A DNA stretch of 64,000 nt, from NCBI RefSeq assembly GCF_003019035.1, contig NZ_CP027447.1. One strand, given 5' to 3'. Every line of letters starts with the position of its first letter. The stretch's first letter is position 1. Shown here one piece after another: positions 4,545 through 58,204 of the stretch. A program made the translations under genes and the position numbers. The notes under the pieces were generated by a model. The model did no database searches. It was not told the origin of the DNA and saw nothing but the letters and a program-made list of their open reading frames with translations. This DNA comes from Escherichia coli (lineage in GTDB: Bacteria > Pseudomonadota > Gammaproteobacteria > Enterobacterales > Enterobacteriaceae).

Positions 4545-6082
<1,538 letters not shown>

Positions 6083-6092
6083 AGGCTGAAAC

Positions 6093-7247
<1,155 letters not shown>

Positions 7248-7292
7248 TTAACAGCGGAGATCCGTTAAGGATCTCCGCGAGACTAATAGAAT

Positions 7293-7321
7293 GCCTGATG
7301 CGCTACGCTTATCAGGCCTAC
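7293..7321. repeat. REP (repetitive extragenic palindrome) element, preceded by a perfect hairpin at 7254..7278
   Basis: gcctgatgcgctacgcttatcaggcctac matches the E. coli REP consensus; gcggagatccgttaaggatctccgc is a perfect stem-loop after srlD. Confidence 0.7.
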
Positions 7322-7352
7322 AGGACTTCCGCCACTACATTAAGGAGAAGTT

Positions 7353-7712
7353 ATGGTATCCGCACTCATCACCGTCGCCGTTATCGCCTGGTGTGCGCAA
7401 CTGGCCTTAGGCGGCTGGCAAATTTCTCGTTTTAACCGTGCCTTCGACACACTATGCCAGCAAGGGCGGGTTGGCGTGGGCCGTTCCAGCGGGCGCTTTA
7501 AACCGCGGGTCGTGGTCGCCATCGCCCTGGACGATCAGCAGCGCATCGTCGACACCTTGTTTATGAAAGGACTGACCGTCTTCGCCCGACCGCAAAAAAT
7601 TCCCGCAATTACCGGTATGCATGCGGGTGATTTACAGCCCGATGTGATCTTTCCCCATGATCCACTATCACAGAATGCTCTATCATTGGCGCTTAAACTG
7701 AAACGTGGATAA
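7353..7712 (+). CDS. gutM: Glucitol operon activator GutM
   Basis: 119 aa; position between srlD and srlR. Confidence 0.9.
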   Translation: MVSALITVAVIAWCAQLALGGWQISRFNRAFDTLCQQGRVGVGRSSGRFKPRVVVAIALDDQQRIVDTLFMKGLTVFARPQKIPAITGMHAGDLQPDVIFPHDPLSQNALSLALKLKRG

Positions 7713-7778
7713 TTTCGTTGTGAATGTTACTTGCTTGCGAAGTTATCATTTTGAAACCTAAATCAGGTAATCACGCCC

Positions 7779-8552
7779 ATGAAACCTCGTCAGCGTCAGG
7801 CCGCCATTCTGGAGTATCTGCAAAAGCAGGGTAAATGCTCGGTTGAAGAATTGGCGCAATACTTTGACACCACAGGCACAACCATTCGCAAAGATCTGGT
7901 CATTCTGGAACATGCCGGAACCGTCATTCGTACTTATGGCGGAGTGGTGTTGAATAAAGAGGAATCCGATCCGCCTATCGATCATAAAACACTCATCAAC
8001 ACCCACAAGAAAGAGCTGATTGCAGAAGCTGCCGTTAGTTTTATCCATGATGGCGATTCGATCATTCTTGATGCTGGCAGTACCGTTTTGCAGATGGTTC
8101 CCCTGCTCTCGCGCTTTAATAACATCACAGTGATGACCAACAGCCTGCATATCGTCAATGCGCTATCCGAACTGGATAACGAACAAACTATCCTGATGCC
8201 AGGCGGAACATTTCGTAAAAAATCGGCCTCATTTCACGGGCAACTGGCAGAGAATGCCTTCGAGCATTTCACCTTCGATAAATTGTTTATGGGCACCGAC
8301 GGCATCGATCTCAATGCGGGCGTAACCACCTTCAACGAGGTCTATACCGTCAGTAAGGCGATGTGTAATGCCGCGCGCGAAGTGATTTTGATGGCTGACT
8401 CATCGAAGTTTGGTCGTAAAAGCCCCAACGTGGTTTGTAGTCTTGAAAGCGTCGATAAGCTAATTACCGACGCAGGTATCGATCCAGCGTTTCGTCAGGC
8501 GCTGGAAGAAAAAGGGATCGACGTGATCATAACCGGAGAGAGCAATGAGTGA
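7779..8552 (+). CDS. srlR: DeoR-family glucitol operon repressor
   Basis: 257 aa, N-terminal HTH, DeoR-like sugar-binding C-terminus. Confidence 0.92.
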
Positions 8553-9510
8553 AGCACTACTGAACGCGGGACGTCAGACGTTAATGCTGGAGTTGCAGGA
8601 AGCAAGCCATTTACCGGAACGTCTGGGCGATGATTTTGTTCGCGCCGCCAATATCATCCTGCACTGCGAAGGCAAAGTGGTGGTTTCGGGAATTGGCAAA
8701 TCGGGCCACATTGGTAAGAAAATCGCCGCAACGCTTGCCAGCACTGGCACACCGGCTTTTTTTGTCCATCCGGCAGAAGCACTGCACGGCGATCTGGGGA
8801 TGATTGAAAGCCGCGATGTGATGCTGTTTATCTCTTACTCCGGTGGCGCGAAGGAACTGGATCTCATTATTCCGCGTCTGGAAGACAAATCTATCGCGCT
8901 GCTGGCAATGACCGGAAAACCGACGTCACCGCTGGGCCTGGCGGCGAAAGCGGTGCTGGATATCTCCGTAGAACGCGAAGCCTGCCCGATGCATCTTGCG
9001 CCGACCTCCAGCACCGTGAATACCCTGATGATGGGCGACGCGTTGGCGATGGCAGTCATGCAGGCGCGTGGTTTTAATGAAGAAGATTTTGCCCGCTCCC
9101 ACCCAGCCGGGGCACTGGGCGCTCGCTTGCTGAATAAAGTGCATCATCTGATGCGCCGTGATGACGCTATTCCGCAGGTAGCGTTAACCGCCAGCGTGAT
9201 GGATGCGATGCTGGAACTCAGCCGCACCGGTCTGGGGCTGGTGGCAGTATGTGACGCTCAGCAACAGGTACAAGGCGTCTTTACCGACGGTGATTTACGT
9301 CGCTGGCTGGTTGGCGGCGGCGCACTCACCACGCCAGTCAATGAAGCGATGACGGTCGGCGGCACCACGTTGCAATCGCAAAGCCGTGCCATCGACGCCA
9401 AAGAAATCCTGATGAAACGCAAAATCACCGCCGCACCGGTAGTGGATGAAAACGGCAAACTCACCGGCGCAATTAACCTGCAGGATTTCTATCAGGCCGG
9501 GATTATTTAA
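8545..9510 (+). CDS. gutQ: Arabinose-5-phosphate isomerase (SIS + CBS domains)
   Basis: 321 aa; SIS motif [14 protein letters not shown] and C-terminal CBS pair. Confidence 0.92.
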
Positions 9511-11021
9511 TCCTTCAGCCCCAGACGTTTCGCCAACCGATGCAAGTTGGCGACGTCGGTTTCCAGCATCCGTGCGCTGGCAGCCCAGTTGTGATGATTT
9601 TGTGCCAGTGCCTGACGAATGGTTTCACGCTGGAACGCTTCTGTCGCTTCACGCAGGTTTTGCTTAACGATAGGCACCGCCGCCGCTTCTGGCGGCGGCA
9701 ACGTCACCTCAGGAAAAGCAAAATGTTGCGCTTCAAGAATCACTTCATCGCCGCTGCGAGTGGCTCTCGCCAGCACTACCGCCCGATGAATAGCATGTTC
9801 CAGTTCACGAACGTTCCCCGGAAAATTGTAGTGTTGCAGTAAATTTCGCGCTCCGGCACTTAATACCACGCGGGAGAGCCCCAACCGCAGGCGGCACTGT
9901 TCGCAGAAATACCCCGCCAGCAGAATGACATCATCGCCCCGCTCACGCAGCGGCGGCACTGAAAGTGGAAACACGCTCAGGCGGTGGAACAAGTCAGCGC
10001 GAAATCGCCCTGCCAGTACCTCTTCGCGTAAGTCACGGTTAGTCGCCGCCAGCACGCGCACATCGACCCGCAAACTGCGGTCATCGCCAACGCGCTGAAT
10101 ATCGCCATACTGCAACACCCGCAGCAGCTTGGCCTGCAATGCCAACGACAACTCGCCGATCTCATCCAGAAACAGCGTGCCGTTATCCGCCATTTCAAAC
10201 TTCCCGCTGCGGTTACTGATAGCGCCAGTAAACGCCCCTTTCACGTGCCCGAACAACTCACTTTCCGCCACACTTTCCGGCAGTGCGGCACAGTTGAGAT
10301 AGACCAGCGGATTCACCGCCCTTGGCGAGGCTTCATGAATCGCTTTCGCCACCAGCTCCTTACCGGTTCCCGTCTCACCGCTGATTAAGACGTTGAGATC
10401 GGACGCCGCCACAATCTCAATCTCTTTTTTCAATTGCGTCATGCCTGGCGACAGACCGATCATCTGCGTCTGTTTCACCGCTTCAAACGGCGCGGCATCG
10501 CCCGGCAGCATATTCTGGCTTTCCAGTTGCTCAATCAGCAACGCATTGCTTAACGCTCCCGCCGCCAGCGCGGCAATCAGGCGTAACTCTTCGTCGCTGA
10601 AAACATCGAACTGATCGGGCTGCATCCCGTCGAGCGTCAATGCGCCGATCAGGTTTTGCCCGGCAAACAATGGCAGACCAACGCAGGCGTGAACCTTCAG
10701 ACTCTCCTGCCCGGGAATCAAACCGTCATAGGGATCGGGCAATTCGCTGTCTGCGGGAAAGCGCACCACGTCCCCGGCGCGGGCAATCGCTTCCAGCCGT
10801 GGATGCCCTTCCAGCGCAAAGCGTCTACCGAGTACATCCTTCGCCAGCCCGTCGATGGCAAGCGGAATAAACTGCCGCGAGTCATAACGTAGCAACGCAG
10901 AGGCATCACACTCCAGCACCTGACGCAGCGTGGTGATCAGGCGCTGAAAACGATCCTGATGACCAATCCCACGCTGCAATTCGATGGCGATATTCGCCAG
11001 CACATCAACGGAAAAACTCAT
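9507..11021 (-). CDS. norR: Sigma54-dependent anaerobic nitric oxide reductase regulator
   Basis: 504 aa; GAF-like N-terminus, AAA+ sigma54-interaction domain (GETGTGKE), C-terminal HTH. Confidence 0.95.
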
Positions 11022-21434: not shown

Positions 21435-21440
21435 ATTCCT
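21435..21440. repeat. Left target-site duplication (ATTCCT; 5 or 6 bp)
   Basis: Identical ATTCCT immediately flanks the other prophage end at 57695..57700. Confidence 0.7.
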
Positions 21441-54876: not shown

Positions 54877-55845
54877 ATGGCAAATCTACCCGAAACCCCG
54901 CAGTGGGAAAGCGGCATCTACCAGATTGAGGTCTCTGACCCCGTTCTGGGCGGACCTGACGGAATTTCTAACCGCCAGGCTAAACAACTGGCCAGCCGAA
55001 CGTCATACCTCAAACAGAAGGTCGAAAAAAGCGGAACAGACCTGGCTGCACATATCGCGGCAGTTGACCCGCATACCCAGTACGCGACGAAAGCCAGTCC
55101 GACATTCACCGGCACACCAACAGCACCTACACCTGCAAATGGTGATAACAGCAAAAAGCTGGCGACGACGGAGTTTGTGGCCAAAGCACTTGCGGCACTT
55201 GCAGGCAGCGCCCCTGAGACACTGGATACGCTTAAAGAGCTGGCTGACGCTCTCGGTAATGATCCAAACTTTGCGACTACGGTACTGAACAAGCTGGCGG
55301 AAAAGCTGGCTAAAGACCAGAACGGCGCAGATATTCCTGAGCCTGCGCTGTTTGTCAAAAACCTTGGTTTGGGGGAAGGCTCTGCACTGCCCGTTGGTGT
55401 GCCCGTTCCGTGGCCCTTAGCAACACCACCAACGGGCTGGCTGAAATGTAACGGTGCAGCATTTTCTTCTGAAATGTACCCCAAACTGGCAAAAGCCTAC
55501 CCCGCGAATAAATTACCGGATTTACGCGGAGAATTTATCCGTGGCTGGGATGATGGGCGAGGAATTGATGCGGCACGCGCTTTATTGAGCATTCAAAACG
55601 GGATGTTGGAAAAACACCGCCATATTGTTGTAGCTAACGATGGATATGACACAAAAGATGAATGGGAGTTGGCTACGATTTTCAAAAAAACATATACACA
55701 AGGCAGGGGGCTTGATGCCACAAATACAGGAGGGAGTTTGACTCCATCACCAACGCTTCATTCACGAGGAAGTATTGGTAACACAGGTGGTAGTGAAACC
55801 CGCCCCCGCAATATTGCATTTAACTATATCGTGAGGGCGGCTTAG
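54877..55845 (+). CDS. Tail fibre protein (constant N-terminus plus invertible C-terminal variant 1)
   Basis: 322 aa; tail-collar-like domain (GWLKCNGAAFSSEMYPKLAKAY...LPDLRGEFIRGWDDGRGID); C-terminal part lies inside the invertible segment. Confidence 0.8.
   Translation: MANLPETPQWESGIYQIEVSDPVLGGPDGISNRQAKQLASRTSYLKQKVEKSGTDLAAHIAAVDPHTQYATKASPTFTGTPTAPTPANGDNSKKLATTEFVAKALAALAGSAPETLDTLKELADALGNDPNFATTVLNKLAEKLAKDQNGADIPEPALFVKNLGLGEGSALPVGVPVPWPLATPPTGWLKCNGAAFSSEMYPKLAKAYPANKLPDLRGEFIRGWDDGRGIDAARALLSIQNGMLEKHRHIVVANDGYDTKDEWELATIFKKTYTQGRGLDATNTGGSLTPSPTLHSRGSIGNTGGSETRPRNIAFNYIVRAA
55352..55377. other. Left invertase crossover site (gix/hix-like)
   Basis: TTGTCAAAAACC-TT-GGTTTGGGGGAA; outer half-site matches the Hin/Gin half-site TTATCAAAAACC. 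Confidence 0.7.
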
Positions 55846-55851
55846 TTATAT

Positions 55852-56469
55852 TCAACTGGCTGCTGCCAGAGGCATTTCCGGCCAGTTGATATCCGGTGCA
55901 GTGCTGATGTCAGTCGCATTAAGCACATCTATGAAATCAAGCACGGCGTTTAGTTTTTCCGTCTCCTGGGGCGTCAATCGGCGTCCGGCTCGTAGTTTGA
56001 GATTTATAAGCTCAACAGATGCCATTGCCTGTTCCTCAAGTTGCTGACGATGCACTCCGGCAGCTTCCAGTTCTGCTGCGTGCTGTCGTCCCGCATCTGT
56101 CACCCAGGTCTCACCATCCCAGACATCATAGATAGTAGCTGGCTGTTTCACCGTCGTATCAGGAGGGTAATCTCCCGGTTGTGTGATTTGCACAGCGTTA
56201 CCATTCTCTGTGCTGTAAACCGTTTCGCCTCTGTGGTCTGGAACATATTTCCAGATGTTCTGGTCGGTATCACGACAGACAGCGAAGCCGGGGCGTTTTT
56301 CTGGTGGCGCGTCAATGCATGAGTGAGCCGGAATTCCAACACCATAAGCGAGATACTCAACAGTGGCAGAGAGATATTCACGGTTTTCAGCATCGTAGTT
56401 ATAAACGGTAATATCGCCTGCAGTTATAGCGATACCATTCTGATCAAGTACTGCAGCAGCATTATTCAT
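55852..56469 (-). CDS. Tail fibre assembly protein (Tfa)
   Basis: 205 aa; C-terminal TDISTAPDINWPEMP resembles the Tfa motif DTSTAPDIEWP. Confidence 0.8.
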   Translation of the reverse strand: MNNAAAVLDQNGIAITAGDITVYNYDAENREYLSATVEYLAYGVGIPAHSCIDAPPEKRPGFAVCRDTDQNIWKYVPDHRGETVYSTENGNAVQITQPGDYPPDTTVKQPATIYDVWDGETWVTDAGRQHAAELEAAGVHRQQLEEQAMASVELINLKLRAGRRLTPQETEKLNAVLDFIDVLNATDISTAPDINWPEMPLAAAS

Positions 56470-56966
56470 TAAGTAGCCCTTACAATATAGTTAAACGCAA
56501 TATTACGGGGGCGGTTTTCCGTTCCTGTATTCCCTCCGTTGGCACCTAATCTATAAACACCACGAGTGCCAATAGCACGTAGTGAAGATGGAACTTTTAC
56601 ACCTGACTCATCTGTTTTAACAATCCCGCCATCACCGTATGTAGCCAGTATACCAGGGTTTGTTCCTGCACGGGTGCTATTTGCGGCAAGCCCTTCACCA
56701 GTCCATAACTCCATATAGTGAATATGATCTATAACCGAATGTGATTGTGCATTAAGCAAGGAACGCCCTGAATCAATTCCCCGCCCGTCATCCCAGCCGC
56801 GAATAAACTCACCCCGTAAATCCGGTAATTTATTCGCGGGGTAGGCTTTTGCCAGTTTGGGGTACATTTCAGAAGAAAATGCTGCACCGTTACATTTCAG
56901 CCACCCTGCTGGCGGTGTGGCTGAGGGCCACGGAACGGGCACACCAACGGGCAGTGCAGAGCCTTC
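56469..56966 (-). CDS. Alternative tail-fibre C-terminal cassette (expressed after inversion)
   Basis: Encodes the same tail-collar region (GEGSALPVGVPVPWP...RGWDDGRGID) followed by a different C-terminus. Confidence 0.7.
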   Translation of the reverse strand, partial: EGSALPVGVPVPWPSATPPAGWLKCNGAAFSSEMYPKLAKAYPANKLPDLRGEFIRGWDDGRGIDSGRSLLNAQSHSVIDHIHYMELWTGEGLAANSTRAGTNPGILATYGDGGIVKTDESGVKVPSSLRAIGTRGVYRLGANGGNTGTENRPRNIAFNYIVRAT

Positions 56967-56978
56967 CCCCAAACCAAC
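56953..56978. other. Right invertase crossover site (gix/hix-like)
   Basis: TTCCCCCAAACC-AA-CGTTTTCGTCTT; inner half-site is the inverted copy of the left inner half-site. Confidence 0.7.
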
Positions 56979-57043
56979 GTTTTCGTCTTAACTCCCACCT
57001 ATACCAGCTATGTATTTTTAACAAAACAAAGAGGATATTTTTC

Positions 57044-57616
57044 ATGCAAATTGGCTACATTCGTGTGTCAACAAATGACCAGAATACAGATTTACAACGA
57101 AACGCACTGAACTGCGCAGGATGTGAACTGATTTTTGAGGATAAAATCAGCGGAACAAAGTCAGCCCGACCGGGATTGAAAAAGCTGCTCAGAACGTTAT
57201 CAGAAGGAGATACGCTCGTTGTCTGGAAGCTGGACAGGCTGGGCAGAAGCATGAAACACCTCATCACTCTTATTGAGGAACTGCGGGAAAAAGGGGTTAA
57301 CTTCCGTAGTCTTACAGACAGCATTGATACGTCAACACCCATGGGACGTTTCTTTTTTCACGTCATGGGGGCTTTAGCGGAAATGGAGCGTGAATTAATA
57401 GTTGAACGAACACTGGCCGGACTTGAAGCAGCACGTGCACAGGGGCGTATTGGTGGACGTCGTCCGAAACTGACAAAAGAGCAACATGAACAAATAGCAA
57501 GGCTGATCAAAAATGGCTATAGCAGGAAACAGTTGGCAATTATTTACGATATCGGTATATCGACGATTTATCGTTATCACCCTGTAGAGGAACTTCAAAC
57601 TCAAGCTGAGTTGTAA
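57044..57616 (+). CDS. gin: Serine DNA invertase (Gin/Hin/Pin family)
   Basis: MQIGYIRVSTNDQNTDLQRNAL... with catalytic Ser in the YIRVST motif and C-terminal HTH; AAGAGGA RBS. Confidence 0.9.
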   Translation: MQIGYIRVSTNDQNTDLQRNALNCAGCELIFEDKISGTKSARPGLKKLLRTLSEGDTLVVWKLDRLGRSMKHLITLIEELREKGVNFRSLTDSIDTSTPMGRFFFHVMGALAEMERELIVERTLAGLEAARAQGRIGGRRPKLTKEQHEQIARLIKNGYSRKQLAIIYDIGISTIYRYHPVEELQTQAEL

Positions 57617-57651
57617 TTCTTTTTCTGATATTGAAATGCCGCGGCGATGTA

Positions 57652-57694
57652 ATTTATCTCACGGAAATAGGTACGTTTATCGCGCGGCGCATCA
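57652..57694. repeat. Right prophage end with putative transposase-binding repeat
   Basis: ATTTATCTCA (inverse of TGAGATAAAT) 33 bp inside the terminus, symmetric with the left end; terminus ...GCGCATCA. Confidence 0.6.
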
Positions 57695-57700
57695 ATTCCT
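57695..57700. repeat. Right target-site duplication (ATTCCT; 5 or 6 bp)
   Basis: Identical to 21435..21440. Confidence 0.7.
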
Positions 57701-58204
57701 TTGTAAATCCAGCAAATCATCAATGCCAGTTTCACTTGCGGTATAAAAACTATCGGACTGAAAAACACACGGGCGACCTTGCTGATTAAAGGTCATCAGA
57801 ATCAAAAACGCGTTAGGTGCCAGACCATTTCCTGAAATACCCCGCCAGATAACCAGATCCTGAATGCCGTTACGATCAAGATCGGCACGGTAAAGTTGCG
57901 CATTACCCGCCATATTTTGCAGCACCCCCACAGGCACAGACCAGGATTTACCGGCGCGATCTTTACCGTTCAATTGCCATTCACTATCATCATTTGGCAT
58001 CTTTTCAAGCGTCACGCCAGCAACGCCGACTTTTCTAAAATGCCAGGTTTGCTCGGCATCATAAGGCATGGTCAGGAGAGGTTTCAGCGCCCGCTTTTGC
58101 GCGTATTCGCTGTCACTCATCGGCAGATATTCGGTAAAGCTGGTGGCCTGTGCAGGCAGCACTAAGCTCAATAAAAAAGCGCACATCCCTGTTCTGATGT
58201 TCAA
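57696..58204 (-). pseudogene. N-terminal fragment of the host ORF split by the prophage (signal-peptide protein)
   Basis: Signal-peptide-like N-terminus (MCAFLLSLVLPAQA); terminated by a TGA formed by the prophage's last 3 bp; in frame with 21171..21434. Confidence 0.7.

Follow-up and report, generated by a model that had tools for sequence, protein, structure and literature searches.

In temperate phages with invertible fibre tips, these tips determine which bacteria can be infected. The G segment of phage Mu is a mirror-image arrangement, Sv-U / U'-Sv', with variable fibre parts (Sv) of ~330 amino acids (aa) and two tail fibre assembly (tfa) genes, U and U'. The C segment of P1 with its invertase Cin and the P segment of e14 with Pin employ the same recombinase family to swap fibre C-termini and have one tfa per alternative tip. 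The Min multiple-inversion system, which was reportedly described in plasmid p15B and P1-like phage-plasmids by Sandmeier et al. in 1990-92, carries many tips. Here we describe an inversion locus with two tips and a single tfa gene, found in 64,000 nucleotides of Escherichia coli DNA (contig NZ_CP027447.1, RefSeq assembly GCF_003019035.1); this whole stretch is called the window below. The locus belongs to the Gin/Hin/Cin/Pin/Min serine invertase systems: it has a recombinase and inverted 26-bp sites, and both orientations of the segment occur in sister copies. We consider it very probable that it is a working site-specific inversion switch of the Gin/Min family, located at the right end of a Mu-like prophage.

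The expressed tail-fibre gene (322 aa, 54877-55845, + strand) consists of a constant part, Hc (54877-55363), fused to a tip cassette, c159 (55366-55845, +), which is built from a collar, a variable insert with an HRH motif and a C-terminal collar strand. Its product falls into the tail fibre group phrog_3100 (E=1.5e-133), with the Collar domain PF07484 at aa 174-221. The second tip cassette, c168 (56469-56975, -), is silent, 5'-truncated and carries an HIH motif. Both cassettes have in common their first ~70 aa and, through a 50-nt inverted repeat, their last 16 aa, in agreement with an earlier note on this DNA, which had described one collar stretch encoded on both strands and leading into two different C-termini. 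Between the two unique regions lies tfa (205 aa, 55852-56469, -; Caudo_TAP PF02413, E=3.7e-25; phrog_105). It is convergent with c159, the fibre stop and the tfa stop being separated by 6 bp, and it directly follows c168, whose stop codon overlaps the tfa ATG as TAATG. Apart from these two collar cassettes, tblastn detected no other in the whole 64-kb window.

The left 26-bp crossover site, TTGTCAAAAACC-TT-GGTTTGGGGGAA (55352-55377, +), is situated within the fibre open reading frame, at codons ..N-L-G-L-G-E.., and its central TT occupies 55364-65. The right site reads AAGACGAAAACG-TT-GGTTTGGGGGAA on the - strand (56964-56989), with central AA of the + strand at 56976-56977. Two sites with oppositely oriented TT and AA were thus rightly recognised by the earlier note, although its position for AA, 56965, was 11 nt off; likewise, its core AAACC-NN-GGTTT describes the left site, the right one, read on the + strand, is AAACC-AA-CGTTT, with one half-site that deviates from GGTTT. 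In a longer form, the core motif appears as AAAACC-TT-GGTTTGGGGGAAGG at 55358-55379 (+) and, in inverted orientation, as AAAACG-TT-GGTTTGGGGGAAGG at 56962-56983 (-). Even when 3 mismatches were allowed, AAAAC(C/G)-TT-GGTTTGGGGGAAGG had only these 2 matches in 64 kb, with 0 expected from shuffles. The block between the central dinucleotides measures 1,610 bp, the proposed 1.6 kb, and contains c159 (+), the one tfa (-) and c168 (-).

At its borders the block carries the arms of a 212-nt inverted repeat, 93% complementary to each other, the left one (55358-55569, +) coding for the collar N-terminal ~70 aa of c159 and the right one (56772-56983, -) for the collar of c168. These repeats had been noticed before, with an underestimated length of ~190 bp; they are much longer than the short inverted repeats that bound the Mu G segment. 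The second inverted repeat (55795-55844, +, and 56470-56519, -, at the C-terminus of c168; 50 nt, 86%) codes for the shared C-terminal ETRPRNIAFNYIVRA. We read it as a returning collar strand and not as a recombination site, because in fibres of the T4 gp37 type the chain goes to the tip and then back to the collar. Inversion of the block swaps the last ~160 residues of the 322-aa fibre, i.e. tip c159, for tip c168, giving a fibre of 331 aa.

Evidence of inversion comes from sister copies. A test protein representing the expected product, Hc fused to the silent c168 (331 aa), was found exactly on 13-14 public contigs, and the exact Hc-c159 protein (322 aa) on 21. At the DNA level, the 1,610-bp block recurs with 0 mismatches in the same orientation in loci L023 and L024 and as exact reverse complement in L015 and L019. 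In all four loci it adjoins the identical constant half-site plus TT, which places the breakpoints at the predicted central dinucleotides. In a c168-fused locus, L017, the collars of both cassettes are unmixed, and both cassettes are identical to those of the window along their full length. The unmixed collars of L017, together with the exactly inverted blocks of L015 and L019, put the exchange ahead of nt 52, where the first polymorphism lies, and hence at the crossover core. Exchange within the first 52 nt in turn speaks against general recombination over the length of the 212-bp repeat. That the inversions arose by homologous recombination between the inverted repeats, without the invertase, is therefore extremely improbable, even though the repeats are long and 93% identical and the collars of L014 and L016 carry gene-conversion patches. 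These patches lie in the c159 collar, at nt 52-89 after the crossover, and hold exact c168-type bases, which suggests gene conversion or homologous exchange between collars.

The serine DNA invertase (190 aa, 57044-57616, +; phrog_125) is a member of the Gin/Cin/Pin/Min family. It shares 75% identity with Mu Gin over 182 aa, contains the active-site serine in RVSTNDQ as well as the MQIGYIRVSTNDQ motif, and identical copies of it were found to carry the Resolvase (PF00239) and HTH_7 (PF02796) domains; the gene is intact. Neither of the two findings that the earlier note would have taken as a refutation, a single orientation only or an active-site defect in gin, was obtained: public assemblies contain both orientations, in sister copies, and the catalytic serine motif is in place. 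As in Mu, the segment lies directly upstream of the invertase gene, the crossover site is homologous, and the Sc/Sv junction peptide coding the site, KDxNGADIP..LF..NLGL, is kept in Mu S. The right site precedes the start codon by 67-68 nt, a spacing collinear with Mu, and over the DNA that runs from the site into the 5' region of the gene, identity to Mu is 81%. By analogy with Mu, inversion would depend on Fis together with an enhancer located in this 5' region.

Several points weigh against a switch that works in this very strain. The evidence for both orientations comes from sister copies and not from the strain's own population. The copy inserted beside the host gene hycI was met only in the c159-ON state (in the window, in L023 and in 3 uninspected places collapsed as similar to L023), and no hycI-site copy was present among the c168-ON loci retrieved. 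Moreover, only one Fis-consensus match (nt 71) is common with Mu gin, and no clear pair of sites was seen. The single orientation at hycI would also be expected if the two-cassette copy were a frozen relic, whose inversion at a useful rate had been lost after deletion of other cassettes. We consider such a relic very unlikely: the invertase and its two sites are intact, as is the 68-nt spacing between site and gene, and the invertase together with the right end is 100% identical to copies that demonstrably shuffle. As consensus assemblies report the majority form only, the single orientation is weak evidence either way. A working switch remains the reading that we prefer, and inversion of related modules is on record: PacBio reads showed the segment of E. 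coli prophage EC958 Phi2 in both orientations (PMC4134206), and multi-tip inversion in E. coli prophages has already been shown experimentally (PMC4134206; PMC4272514). Both crossover sites of the window agree with the Sandmeier consensus as quoted in the former of these papers (PMC4134206).

Relatives of the locus were collected with a 651-nt query, comprising the invertase gene and the phage right end, which had a full-length match in 24 other loci. At least 97.8% identity was reached by 21 of the 24, with 20 different host flanks; 14 of these (L003, L014-L017, L019-L021, L023-L025 and L027-L029) are 100% identical and each abut a different host sequence. Identical invertases and right ends at different host sites imply one E. 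coli phage that has been transposing or infecting recently and repeatedly. Related Mu-like loci contain 2, 3, 4, 5, 6 or 7 tip cassettes, permuted in order between strains, but a single tfa each, set in a fixed core in which c168 is followed by tfa and tfa faces c159 tail to tail. This core is kept in at least 25 loci, and in the E. coli Mu-like relatives as well as in pKOr024_2, a P1-like plasmid, its order and its 6-bp and 1-bp junctions are as in the window. Each cassette starts at a crossover site; in the multi-cassette relatives the internal sites, GCGGCATAGAAACG-TT-GGTTTGGGGG, arise where one cassette's stop codon passes into the site of the next. Enumeration of the states that can be reached by inversion between inverted sites gave 2 for two cassettes and 240 for six. 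Near-identical copies differ in cassette number, an observation that points to loss (or gain) of cassettes by recombination between directly repeated sites or collars, besides shuffling.

Other relatives show the same plan with variations. The Klebsiella Mu-like phage KP12 has two cassettes and one tfa, arranged likewise, but its tfa is followed by a gap of ~215 bp. The sister prophage CFS3292 is an exception, having two tfa genes in a Mu-like arrangement. In pKOr024_2 (locus L032, 92.7 kb), nine collar cassettes and one tfa stand behind a P1-type fibre gene (5022-10092). Close homologues of c159, c168, c178 and c143 are among these nine, so tips are common to P1-like plasmids and Mu-like prophages. 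EC958 Phi2 (Forde et al. 2014, PMC4134206) resembles the present element in the order of baseplate genes (GPW_gp25 / J / tail protein I) and fibre gene, in a near-identical crossover site (..AAACGTTGGTTTGGGGGAA) and in collar cassettes with a single tfa in the core block; it differs in having three cassettes with other tip alleles, a Tfa that is 71% identical and invertase DNA that is ~76% identical. Its loci are presented as mirror images, without comment on the single tfa (PMC4134206).

To judge from this gene arrangement, the window holds the minimal two-cassette form of a Min-type multi-cassette module. Common-frame cassettes that each start at a site, and a fixed tail-to-tail core with a single tfa, are found here as in such modules. 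Like the Min system of p15B, the locus combines a serine invertase and the same crossover core with alternative 3' fibre ends on one constant 5' part. The number of isomers quoted for p15B, 240 (PMC2481393), is the same as that of the six-site relatives described above; a single tfa is inferred for p15B from its P1-like relative only. The differences concern the host element, a Mu-like prophage instead of a P1-like plasmid, and the number of tips, which makes of the present copy a two-state flip-flop. Multiple inversion in the Min sense takes three or more sites; here there are two, against 3-7 in sister copies and 9 in the P1-like plasmid. Most likely, a deletion between directly repeated sites or collars produced the window copy. 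This copy would then be a derivative of a six-cassette, 240-isomer Min-type module of which only the fixed core is left; both its c168 collar and its outer half-site on the invertase side are intact. A more remote parallel is the R64 shufflon, in which several alternative C-terminal cassettes are likewise shuffled behind one constant gene start, although its recombinase (Rci) is of the tyrosine type, its products are PilV adhesins and it is not known to have a chaperone gene. The switch, then, is real and of an already-known type, of which it is only the smallest two-tip version. It confirms the Min-type tip-shuffling module in a recently active Mu-like E. coli phage, and it demonstrates that such a module can shrink to a two-state switch.

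All cassettes have a frame in common, made up of ~70 N-terminal residues (GLGEGSALPVGVPVPWP...RGWDDGRGID) and 16 C-terminal ones; in between, roughly 55-110 residues are variable and often include an HxH motif. In both tips of the window this motif stands at the same place after the collar, within EKHRHIV (55600-55640) and IDHIHYM (56700-56740, -). In T4 gp37 and gp12 fibres, HxH is carried by the metal-binding needle. The gp37 chain leaves the collar, reaches the receptor-binding tip and comes back to the collar. Among solved structures, the best relative of the cassettes is the T4 long tail fibre gp37 at its distal tip (PDB 2XGF), and the match spans the N-terminal collar and the far C-terminal NIAFNYIVRLA; collar and NIAFNYIVR strand can be aligned, and an HxH motif is present. 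T4 gp37, which is accompanied by the chaperone gp38, is not known to undergo inversion, and in the cassettes needle and tip are much shorter. Each tip is a conserved collar frame, like that of the gp37 tip, around a variable, HxH-bearing insert, and the insert would set receptor specificity. The unique region of c159 is under strong purifying selection, with dN/dS of 0.05-0.09 and, in the most divergent pair, 17 synonymous versus 4 non-synonymous differences.

The locus has one feature of broader interest, the rule that many tips go with one chaperone; otherwise it is largely ordinary. The earlier note had observed that its single tfa follows only the silent cassette and that none stands behind the expressed variant. 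Both statements are borne out: tblastn revealed no second tfa in the whole window, and in the present state the gene that lies 6 bp past the fibre stop is antisense to the fibre gene. The contrast with the Mu G segment and its two tfa genes was also drawn correctly, but it is neither new nor peculiar to this locus, for the single tfa throughout the family marks it as a family norm and not a local defect. Decay of a second tfa was considered as an explanation and rejected, because fibre stop and tfa stop are only 6 bp apart and this junction is kept in those E. coli relatives that we examined. Since c159 and tfa have no crossover site between them, expression of c159 together with sense tfa is never possible; in every module enumerated, tfa is antisense in exactly half of the isomers. 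Counts of tfa orientation among genomes were rejected as a test of function, given that prophage orientation equilibrates in lysogens and the samples were chosen by orientation. Among the papers searched, none remarks on the single chaperone of such modules, the original Min papers being outside the search.

A tfa gene beside collar tips is the general rule in lambdoid and P2-like fibre operons, and lambda Tfa can substitute for gp38. The latter fits an explanation that we tentatively favour, without calling it probable, namely that Tfa is a generalist chaperone which may recognise the collar frame common to all tips. This frame is indeed the constant element of the tips. In pKOr024_2 the tips of the c159 and c168 types are free cassettes, and its tfa goes with other tips. 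EC958 Phi2, KP12 and CFS3292 each have a different tip upstream of tfa, with the N-terminal regions of Tfa conserved. Finally, at least one related collar tip outside such modules, that of phage HK106, has an annotated tfa adjacent to it. By BLASTP, no similarity between Tfa and Mu U was detected, and neither BLASTP nor phmmer found homology of Tfa to solved structures; a search of IMG/VR with Tfa returned 5 loci.

According to a competing explanation, Tfa is needed only by the translationally coupled c168, and folding of c159 and the other free tips does not depend on it. The TAATG overlap of the c168 stop and the tfa start speaks for such coupling, and c159 is never co-transcribed in sense with tfa and yet is under purifying selection. 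The cassettes also resemble tips of T4 gp12-type short fibres, and gp12-type tips are not known to use a chaperone of the Tfa/gp38 type. Yet the very tip that should be coupled, c168, has a counterpart in pKOr024_2 that is a free cassette, the tfa there being coupled to a different tip. The three further elements with exchanged tips upstream of tfa (EC958 Phi2, KP12 and CFS3292) and the tfa annotated alongside the HK106 collar tip are likewise at odds with it, and we regard this restriction of Tfa to c168 as rather unlikely.

If Tfa is a generalist, its supply has to be explained. In the c159-ON state, Tfa would come from a transcript other than that of the late fibre genes, or would be needed in small amounts. 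An own promoter of tfa, which the earlier note had proposed to look for, did not emerge: the consensus scan found no sigma-70-like site of at least 9/12 before tfa on the tfa strand, which counts against a chaperone made independently of orientation. A laxer scan yielded only two candidates, CTGGCA-17-TAAATT, which lies inside the collar, and TGgTATACT (56655-56647, -), an extended -10. By chance, ~0.2 hits of this kind are expected, and neither candidate occurs in EC958 Phi2 or KP12. Lacking a consensus site, and with weak candidates that are not kept across lineages, we rejected an own tfa promoter, and orientation-independent expression of tfa is so far without support. A further reservation concerns the purifying selection on c159, part of which could stem from elements that carry this tip as a free cassette.

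Min-type modules could nevertheless possess a generalist Tfa that is uncoupled from the tips and lies antisense in half of the isomers, always so for c159. Such an arrangement would call either for a hidden, orientation-independent promoter, possibly one dependent on a late activator, or for a built-in fibre-less OFF phase; we judge it possible, though doubtful. Taken by itself, the OFF phase would mean that isomers with antisense tfa, here the c159-ON form, give fibre-defective and poorly infectious particles, either as a tolerated cost or as part of the design. The missing tfa promoter and the antisense position in exactly half of the isomers would suit this, as would a late transcript running antisense through tfa, there being no terminator after the fibre gene. 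It is at variance with the strong purifying selection on c159, which in Mu-like elements is expressed only in the tfa-antisense state, and with the core block being kept in all of the at least 25 loci; we take it to be quite unlikely. Since no terminator-like site was found 3' of the fibre gene, a read-through late transcript would hold both 212-nt arms. Such a transcript could form a long, 93%-paired RNA duplex across part of the fibre coding region.

Should Tfa recognise the conserved collar frame, as we tentatively propose, fibres of this kind could be given new, engineered tips with no need of a matching chaperone. The two-cassette copy would be the cleanest natural system for testing how Tfa is supplied when tfa faces the wrong way.

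The element that carries the switch (21440-57694, +, ~36.2 kb) is, by its sequence, a Mu-like transposable prophage, as evidenced by conserved ends at many sites, a target duplication and its tail module. Upstream of the switch, this module comprises Phage_GPD, base_V, GPW_gp25, Baseplate_J and Tail_P2_I, the Mu/P2 baseplate type. The duplicated ATTCC(T) occupies 21435-21440 and 57695-57700. From 57695 onwards the sequence is that of the host, with 100% identity to E. coli SCU-301 beside hycI. These three observations place the switch at the right end of a Mu-like prophage, the position that is occupied in Mu by the G segment and gin. The left terminus is TTGATC.. or TGATC.., an ambiguity of 1 nt. 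The right end (57617-57694, +) terminates in ..GCGCATCA, which adjoins at least 14 different host sequences in sister copies. In Mu, com and mom are present after gin; here both are absent from the right end, where only 78 nt (57617-57694) extend from the invertase stop to the end of the phage.

The insertion target was a hypothetical gene adjoining hycI. A 170-aa open reading frame (57692-58204, -) is the truncated remainder of this gene, the other part of which lies left of 21440. Two of the related records show irregularities of their own. In L017 (1-3420), only ~3 kb, in which no genes are called, separate the fibre gene from the host genes yjbF and yjbG upstream of it, and this copy may be truncated or rearranged. 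In L030 (phage vB_EcoM-673R5, 3706-4277), the invertase is annotated as two fragments, Hin1 and Hin2, and the collar cassettes end after 93-96 aa, which looks like frameshift errors of the record rather than biology.

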